Shown here: one piece after another, positions 57,611 to 58,299 of the stretch
Position numbering within the stretch: the first letter of the stretch is position 1
How the letters are laid out: each line of letters starts with the position of its first letter
Assembly: GCF_902652985.1 (NCBI RefSeq)
Contig: NC_047018.1
Coordinates: forward strand, 45,074,001 to 45,138,000
Origin: Pecten maximus
Lineage: Eukaryota
DNA length: 64,000 nucleotides
Reading direction: 5' to 3'
The notes under the pieces: model-generated
Seen by the model: only the letters and a program-made list of their open reading frames with translations
The model's database searches: none
What the model was told of the DNA's origin: nothing
Program-made: the position numbers and the translations under genes

Positions 57611-58299
57611 CTCGACCTCTAGTGGACATCTTATCATAGGCTGTTCAAACATTACAGCGCCACCTGGTGTGTATATATGTCATTAATACGCTCAGCGACA
57701 CCTATTGGACGTTTAAAGATACATATGTATGCTATTTACAAACTGTTACGACATCTATACTTTTAATGATGAGTTATGACGCCAAAGCGACGCCTAGTTG
57801 ACGTTTAAAGGCGTCATTTTTCCACACAGAACATTAGATACAATTTGCTTATGTTAGGTTGTCTCAGTACCCGGACAAACCCGGACGGGTGACCCCATAC
57901 TTTCGCATGTCCGATCTGAGAATCGGTCGCTCGTAATACAATTACAGTGCCGTTATAGTGTTGGGCGAAATTCTGTTTGTTTATTTCTATTTTTAGCGTG
58001 ATTGCATTATACTGAAAATGCTTTTAAAAATAATAAAAAAATACTTTTAAAAGGAAATTTAGGTGATGGCTGGGCGGAATAATGGGGTTTTGGAAGCAAG
58101 TATAAATGATGGTATCTTTTCCAATATGGCACAAAATCTTCCTCCAAACCAGTAAGTTATATGTTCAAATTCATAATATAGCGACATCTATTGGGAACAA
58201 AAACAAAACAGCGACACCAAGCGGGCAGTATGCACCAGTTTGGCGACACCTAGTGCATCAAAATAATGGCATGCATGTGTCCAGCGACATCTACAGGAA
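57611..58299 (-). promoter_or_regulatory. Cluster of eight co-oriented CTCF-like motifs (candidate insulator)
   Basis: Plus-strand matches to the reverse-complement CTCF core GCGCCMYCTRGTGG at 57611, 57655, 57693, 57785, 58179, 58209, 58241, 58282. Confidence 0.55.

Follow-up and report, generated by a model that had tools for sequence, protein, structure and literature searches.

Eight co-oriented CTCF-like motifs clustered in single-copy DNA between divergent genes of the scallop Pecten maximus: a candidate insulator-type element

Introduction

Clustered CTCF sites are, as such, already known. Mouse TAD borders are described as marked by clustered, mostly co-oriented CTCF sites (PMC6945661), and BORIS, which defines the class of closely spaced pairs known as 2xCTS, is given as vertebrate-specific (PMC13317027). 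Evidence from flies and echinoderms argues against orientation-dependent CTCF boundaries outside vertebrates: at echinoderm boundaries, motif orientation is reported as indistinguishable from that in shuffled controls (PMC13317027). For molluscs, a review lists CTCF orthologues (PMC10658182), squid boundaries are reported to be enriched for CTCF-like motifs (PMC9023564), and, as far as the squid sources go, the signal at boundaries and loop anchors is one of enrichment only (PMC9023564, PMC13652810, PMC10658181). Active CTCF motifs in an annelid are described as mostly single and situated in promoters (PMC7854359). Our literature search returned nothing on a GCGAC form of the motif or on bivalve CTCF clusters, although motif logos, supplements, and subscription papers may show the variant.

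Here, we analyze a cluster of CTCF-like motifs in a 64,000-nucleotide stretch of Pecten maximus DNA (contig NC_047018.1; hereafter, the window, whose coordinates are used throughout).

Composition and density of the cluster

A sequence-only reading of the window had proposed eight co-oriented CTCF-like motifs within 700 bp. All eight strings are present where that reading placed them, each once in the sequence; all lie on the minus strand, and all match a vertebrate CTCF matrix, modeled on JASPAR MA0139.1, with P values from 1.4e-7 to 7.7e-5 (Table 1). Seven of the eight motifs reach at least 12 bits, and three only count as strong sites. Start-to-start distances within the two groups of four are 45, 38, 92, 30, 32, and 41 bp (overall range, 30 to 394 bp), such that adjacent motifs within each group lie less than 100 bp apart, as in 2xCTS elements. 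Six of the eight read GCGAC in place of GCGCC, as the same reading had claimed, and A occupies the variant position in seven. Across all eight copies, the GCGACAYCT half is the best-kept part, the opposite end of the core being degenerate in motifs 2, 4, 7, and 8.

Table 1. Features of the motif cluster and its surroundings, in window coordinates
Feature	Positions	Strand	Remarks
CTCF-like motif 1	57610-57628	-	16.4 bits
CTCF-like motif 2, canonical GCGCC form	57655-57673	-	19.6 bits
CTCF-like motif 3, GCGAC form	57693-57711	-	17.2 bits
CTCF-like motif 4, weak; high-information column mismatched	57785-57803	-	7.4 bits
CTCF-like motif 5	58179-58197	-	12.7 bits
CTCF-like motif 6	58209-58227	-	12.7 bits
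CTCF-like motif 7	58241-58259	-	12.7 bits
CTCF-like motif 8	58282-58300	-	14.4 bits
Gap between the two groups of four	57804-58178		375 bp
Factor-motif patch beside the cluster	57484-57560		RUNX-like heptamers 57484, 57504; E-box 57517; RFX-like 57547
Single-copy, CpG-rich stretch holding the cluster	54790-58974		4 E-boxes, 3 full CRE, ETS-like site
Old dispersed repeat fragment, outside the cluster, ending the single-copy stretch	58975-59144		copies elsewhere 71-82% identical

The three best matrix matches in the window (among 37 at P < 1e-4) sit in the cluster, which also holds 7 of the 35 matches that reach 12 bits or more across the 464 kb scanned. Dinucleotide shuffles of positions 57400-58500 (n = 2,000) gave no same-strand match in 1,922 cases, one in 77, and two in 1; none exceeded two, fewer than the cluster itself holds. 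In a scan of 864 kb, for which one matrix column was re-weighted to this genome, the cluster is the sole group of at least three same-strand matches outside tandem repeats and accounts for 4 of the 12 non-repeat matches of at least 15 bits. Matches at this level number 14 in all, versus 5 with the reversed matrix. Around the cluster, strong motifs are too few to show a convergent-partner or divergent-border pattern: within 400 kb to the left, there is one non-repeat plus-strand match, and, in the same orientation as the cluster, strong motifs lie at ~140, 171 (two), and 186 kb in window coordinates, near the gene encoding DUF7042-7045.

Two forms of the motif across the genome

Exact 14-base searches of the whole genome returned 192 sites of the canonical GCGCC form (control, 3) and 102 of the GCGAC form (control, 4), whereas the remaining two bases at the variant position yielded 17 sites together (11 and 6) versus a control of 7. 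A 15-base version gave 57 canonical and 31 GCGAC sites, with a control of 1 each. The GCGAC form is, then, a real second form that makes up about one third of perfect sites in this genome, which upholds the earlier suggestion of a motif variant; in the vertebrate matrix, the GCGAC form accounts for under a tenth of sites. This genome-wide tolerance of G or T implies that vertebrate matrices likely under-score mollusc sites in general.

In an initial set of 56 loci, the flanks are mutually unrelated except for three small families. For a closer view, we assembled 136 loci. Of these, 76 are variant loci (out of the 77 distinct places represented by 100 of the 102 matches), and 60 are canonical, chosen among the first 100 of the 192 canonical sites. 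After de-duplication, 74 of 117 sites have A immediately before the core, at a position that formed no part of the query (background, 32%); the vertebrate matrix predicts this preference. An upstream extension motif did not emerge from these 117 sites. Genome-wide, the motif thus appears to behave like a bound site.

A rival reading is that the motifs are targets of a zinc-finger factor other than CTCF, one with a preference for the GCGACAYCT half. This would be consistent with the excess of A at the variant position (seven of eight, versus about one third genome-wide), with the degeneracy of the other core end in half of the motifs, and with two degenerate pattern searches of this genome for the CTCF gene, which gave no match. 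We consider this quite unlikely: the canonical form occurs within the same array (motif 2), the two forms are likewise mixed in other arrays and clusters of this genome, and the whole 14-base core of the GCGAC form, rather than one half of it, is enriched 25-fold over the control. The mollusc CTCF orthologues listed in the review cited above also speak against a substitute factor.

Copy number, repeat structure, and probable selection on the motifs

Genome searches with positions 57400-58500 and 54790-57400 returned one match each, the locus itself, and a local BLAST of the block against 0.9 Mb of this genome's DNA gave no match. The block is single copy, and the proposal that it was possibly delivered by a transposon finds no support in a region that is single copy from 54.8 to 58.97 kb. 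Searches of this kind, in which very common words are skipped, do recover old repeats nearby: the query 58300-60900 matched dispersed repeats at 71-83% identity, from position 58975 onward only. The idea that the motifs are subterminal repeats of a transposon was rejected on these grounds, the block being single copy in both the genome searches and the local BLAST. Inside the 375-bp gap, part of 57881-57930 has loose-ended matches to other contigs, possibly marking a short repeat relic, tentatively a SINE; genome searches and BLAST did not confirm it.

Elsewhere in the genome, a 6.5-kb DNA transposon (L200:1313-7776; C2:18427812-18434275) contains THAP + DDE_Tnp_4 and PHD + YqaJ frames, and each of its inverted ends (489 bp, 99% identical) holds a canonical CTCF-like 14-mer facing outward. 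Motif pairs like those of this element, ~6.4 kb apart, are found on C6 (twice) and C10. Its gene content recalls KolobokP, whose long ends are direct, not inverted.

The block had also been described as something other than a simple tandem repeat, which our analyses bear out: TRF finds no array over it and no periodic head-to-tail unit, and its spacers are mutually unrelated. By ungapped identity, the motif cores are 0.73 alike, versus 0.29 for the 14 bases downstream and 0.32 for those upstream (null, 0.27 ± 0.03), such that the motifs are more constrained than their flanks, as judged within the array only; the gapped spacer score (9.7) likewise sits at the null (9.4 ± 0.7). The exception is a run of ~11 downstream bases common to motifs 3 and 4, which is likely a relic of duplication. 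When the neutral erosion of a minisatellite was simulated at seven divergence levels, none of the 400 runs at any level produced random spacers together with at least five motifs. Because neutral erosion fails in this way, and because the spacers lie at the null while the motifs remain alike, we infer that the motifs were retained or gained under selection. Their shared orientation most likely arose by old local duplication followed by decay of the spacers with the motifs retained; as a product of local duplication, co-orientation would by itself be no proof of a directional loop anchor.

Motif arrays elsewhere in the genome

Minisatellites bearing the motif occur at 11 of the 136 loci (a twelfth, with a 10-base period, was excluded from the count), and more surfaced via pair patterns. 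Their units are mostly unrelated, with periods of 29-111 bp. The minisatellites with a CTCF-like motif (L132-L145, L165, and L199) span periods of 10-111 bp and up to 25 copies, and those on C2 and C10 are ~66% alike. A special class of CTCF minisatellites, an idea that had rested on the contrast between 11 of 136 loci and a 1.2% seed fraction, was rejected: shuffled patterns of the same composition fall in tandem repeats at 6.3-6.8% (P = 0.24-0.33). For the variant form alone, 9 of 76 loci lie in minisatellites (P = 0.05-0.07). Within the minisatellites, motifs have changed at 80 of 1,327 positions (0.060) and spacers at 278 of 3,389 (0.082), the motif rate being lower in 9 of 13 arrays.

These arrays bear on the view that the cluster is a neutral relic: a former minisatellite or transposon end in which the motif was present by chance and which is now eroding with no role. 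Minisatellites make up ~15% of the region, they carry the motif at chance level, their motifs change only slightly less than their spacers, and a transposon of this genome holds the motif in its ends, all of which this view would accommodate. It nevertheless strikes us as highly improbable, given that the block is single copy and lacks a periodic unit and that its spacers are at the null yet seven motifs score at least 12 bits, an outcome that simulated erosion never gave.

At the remaining 124 non-repeat loci, no more than four co-oriented matches occur within 700 bp, and the cluster is the densest non-repeat motif cluster observed in the examined loci of this genome. Neighboring motifs at 19-60 bp from non-repeat loci comprise five on the opposite strand and five on the same strand, with 0.75 expected. 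The closest look-alikes (L228, L233, L102, L097, and L098) are non-repeat loci with two to four co-oriented motifs spaced 28-46 bp apart.

Population variation

The account of population variation covers 40 of 137 variants, with run X6 (7 of 30 bins covered) left out. A contig from run X4 spanning motifs 1-4 (57450-57835) shows 0 differences in 386 bases, and one from run X1 (56534-58009), which may be the source of the assembly, shows 8, all to the left of 57382; the low variation over motifs 1-4 in these two runs is a weak hint of constraint. Run X5 displays 35 differences over the 1.8 kb from 56403 to 58196, mostly outside the 40 variants covered, and has 56280-56402 replaced by 58 other bases. 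Run X4 also carries a 14-base deletion allele at 58164, just before motif 5.

Genomic setting

The nearest identified genes on the left are minus-strand GPCR frames that start 33 kb left of the window and 91 kb from the cluster. On the right, the nearest is a plus-strand, multi-exon gene of the DUF7042 family (DUF7042/7043/7044/7045; L041-L045; ~160900-195100 in window coordinates) with relatives in a chiton, a gastropod, and a bivalve; its first matched exon lies 97 kb past the window end and 103 kb from the cluster. The identified flanking genes are thus divergent and ~194 kb apart, and short-exon or non-coding genes may lie between them. The sequence-only reading had the cluster as an insulator closing a gene desert: the gene-poor stretch is there, but the cluster sits near its middle rather than closing it.

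Farther left, a TALE-class homeobox frame (L269:4561-5415) lies ~245 kb from the window, with PIGO/PIGG-like, TRIM-like, and GPCR frames in between. An IL17 pair in tandem was noted in L257. Closer in, ~5 kb from the window's left edge, a 177-codon minus-strand frame (L071:4901-5431) has the top coding score among unexplained frames and matches no Pfam family or homologue. An exon between the two motif groups was rejected as a candidate, the frame there having 30 codons, an immediate stop, and an ATG that is polymorphic in three runs.

The immediate surroundings have the look of a regulatory element. CpG counts on both flanks of the cluster fall in the 98th-99th percentile, and the 4.2-kb single-copy stretch exceeds expectation in consensus sites for E-box (4 versus 1.4), CRE (3 versus 0.4), RFX-like (1 versus 0.02), and RUNX-like (2 versus 0.75) elements, labeled here by consensus. 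A promoter-like patch with ETS-like, G-rich, CRE-like, and E-box elements is present at 56270-56530, 1.1 kb left of the cluster.

Such surroundings would suit a CTCF-bound promoter or enhancer of the 2xCTS kind, without any boundary role, in which close sites keep a CpG-rich element accessible to factors of the RFX, bHLH, CREB, and RUNX types and so drive a distant gene or a transcript missing from the annotation. In addition to CpG content and factor sites, spacing below 100 bp as reported for 2xCTS sites (PMC5973138) and the predominance of promoters among annelid CTCF motifs (PMC7854359) fit this possibility, which we hold to be the main rival, though less likely than not. Against it, no nearby coding exon was found; three candidate frames (47915-48106, 55363-55659, and L071:4901-5431) are without homologues, which is weak evidence; an Rfam search for structured RNA at the block gave 0 matches; consensus sites for NF-Y, NRF1, and YY1 are absent from the 4.2-kb stretch; and a promoter pair would presumably need fewer than eight sites. 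Promoter or enhancer and insulator roles are not mutually exclusive.

Discussion

Our preferred reading, to which we give an even chance, is that selection has likely maintained this single-copy, co-oriented eight-motif cluster as a CTCF platform with multiple sites, which would act as an insulator-type element between divergent genes. CTCF would be the protein that binds the eight motifs; several medium-strength sites 30-45 bp apart could keep the spot occupied and nucleosome-free, and occupied CTCF would slow cohesin or block enhancer contacts, such that the two regulatory halves of the gap stay apart. This mechanism is modeled on mouse clusters (PMC6945661) and on tandem sites (PMC7087399), insofar as those accounts describe them.

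Several points count against this reading. Arrays of weak sites are predicted not to insulate in a mammalian model (PMC11828424), and only three sites here are strong; closely spaced CTCF pairs in mammals are reported to carry active promoter marks (PMC5973138), and the surroundings here are promoter- or enhancer-like. The cluster also has no clear convergent partner, non-repeat neighbors of the motif lie as often on the opposite strand as on the same one, the 117 sites examined have no upstream extension motif, and run X5 shows 35 differences over 1.8 kb. The blank searches for the CTCF gene, the lack of an orientation rule at echinoderm boundaries, and the mostly single, promoter-located annelid motifs count on the same side.

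A further proposal, tentative and on balance unlikely, is that this bivalve may use dense one-directional CTCF arrays as orientation-dependent cohesin barriers in vertebrate-like fashion, with arrays formed by local duplication and then purged to the motif and with CTCF accepting T for G at one core position about one third of the time. If this were true, directional anchoring by such arrays would either be ancestral to bilaterians or have originated independently in molluscs. Strong motifs are sparse (12 non-repeat matches in 864 kb), which makes the cluster exceptionally well suited for testing CTCF directionality in molluscs.

Comparison with known systems

As far as the respective sources describe them, four kinds of CTCF element come close to the scallop cluster. 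(i) Mammalian TAD-border clusters (PMC6945661), along with the Pcdh and Igh tandem sites (PMC7087399), likewise gather several same-orientation motifs in a single intergenic place, and their motifs bear marks of constraint. They are, however, defined by ChIP, with spacing of up to 10 kb, whereas the scallop motifs lie 30-394 bp apart within 700 bp and are mostly of the GCGAC form. (ii) The 2xCTS elements (PMC5973138) share spacing below 100 bp, CpG-rich surroundings, and the motifs of other factors but are described as pairs, in contrast with two groups of four. (iii) CTCF-bound tandem repeats, or VNTRs (PMC5007689), also carry many co-oriented motifs at a 30-45 bp pitch; relative to these, the scallop block has no remaining repeat unit, and its spacers are at random similarity. 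(iv) Among spiralians, CTCF-like motifs are enriched in squid TAD boundaries (PMC9023564, PMC13652810) and in the open chromatin of Dimorphilus (PMC7854359); what those accounts describe is enrichment or mostly single promoter motifs, with no directional rule and no dense co-oriented cluster among the features they report. Overall, the scallop cluster has the appearance of a clustered CTCF element and probably functions as one.
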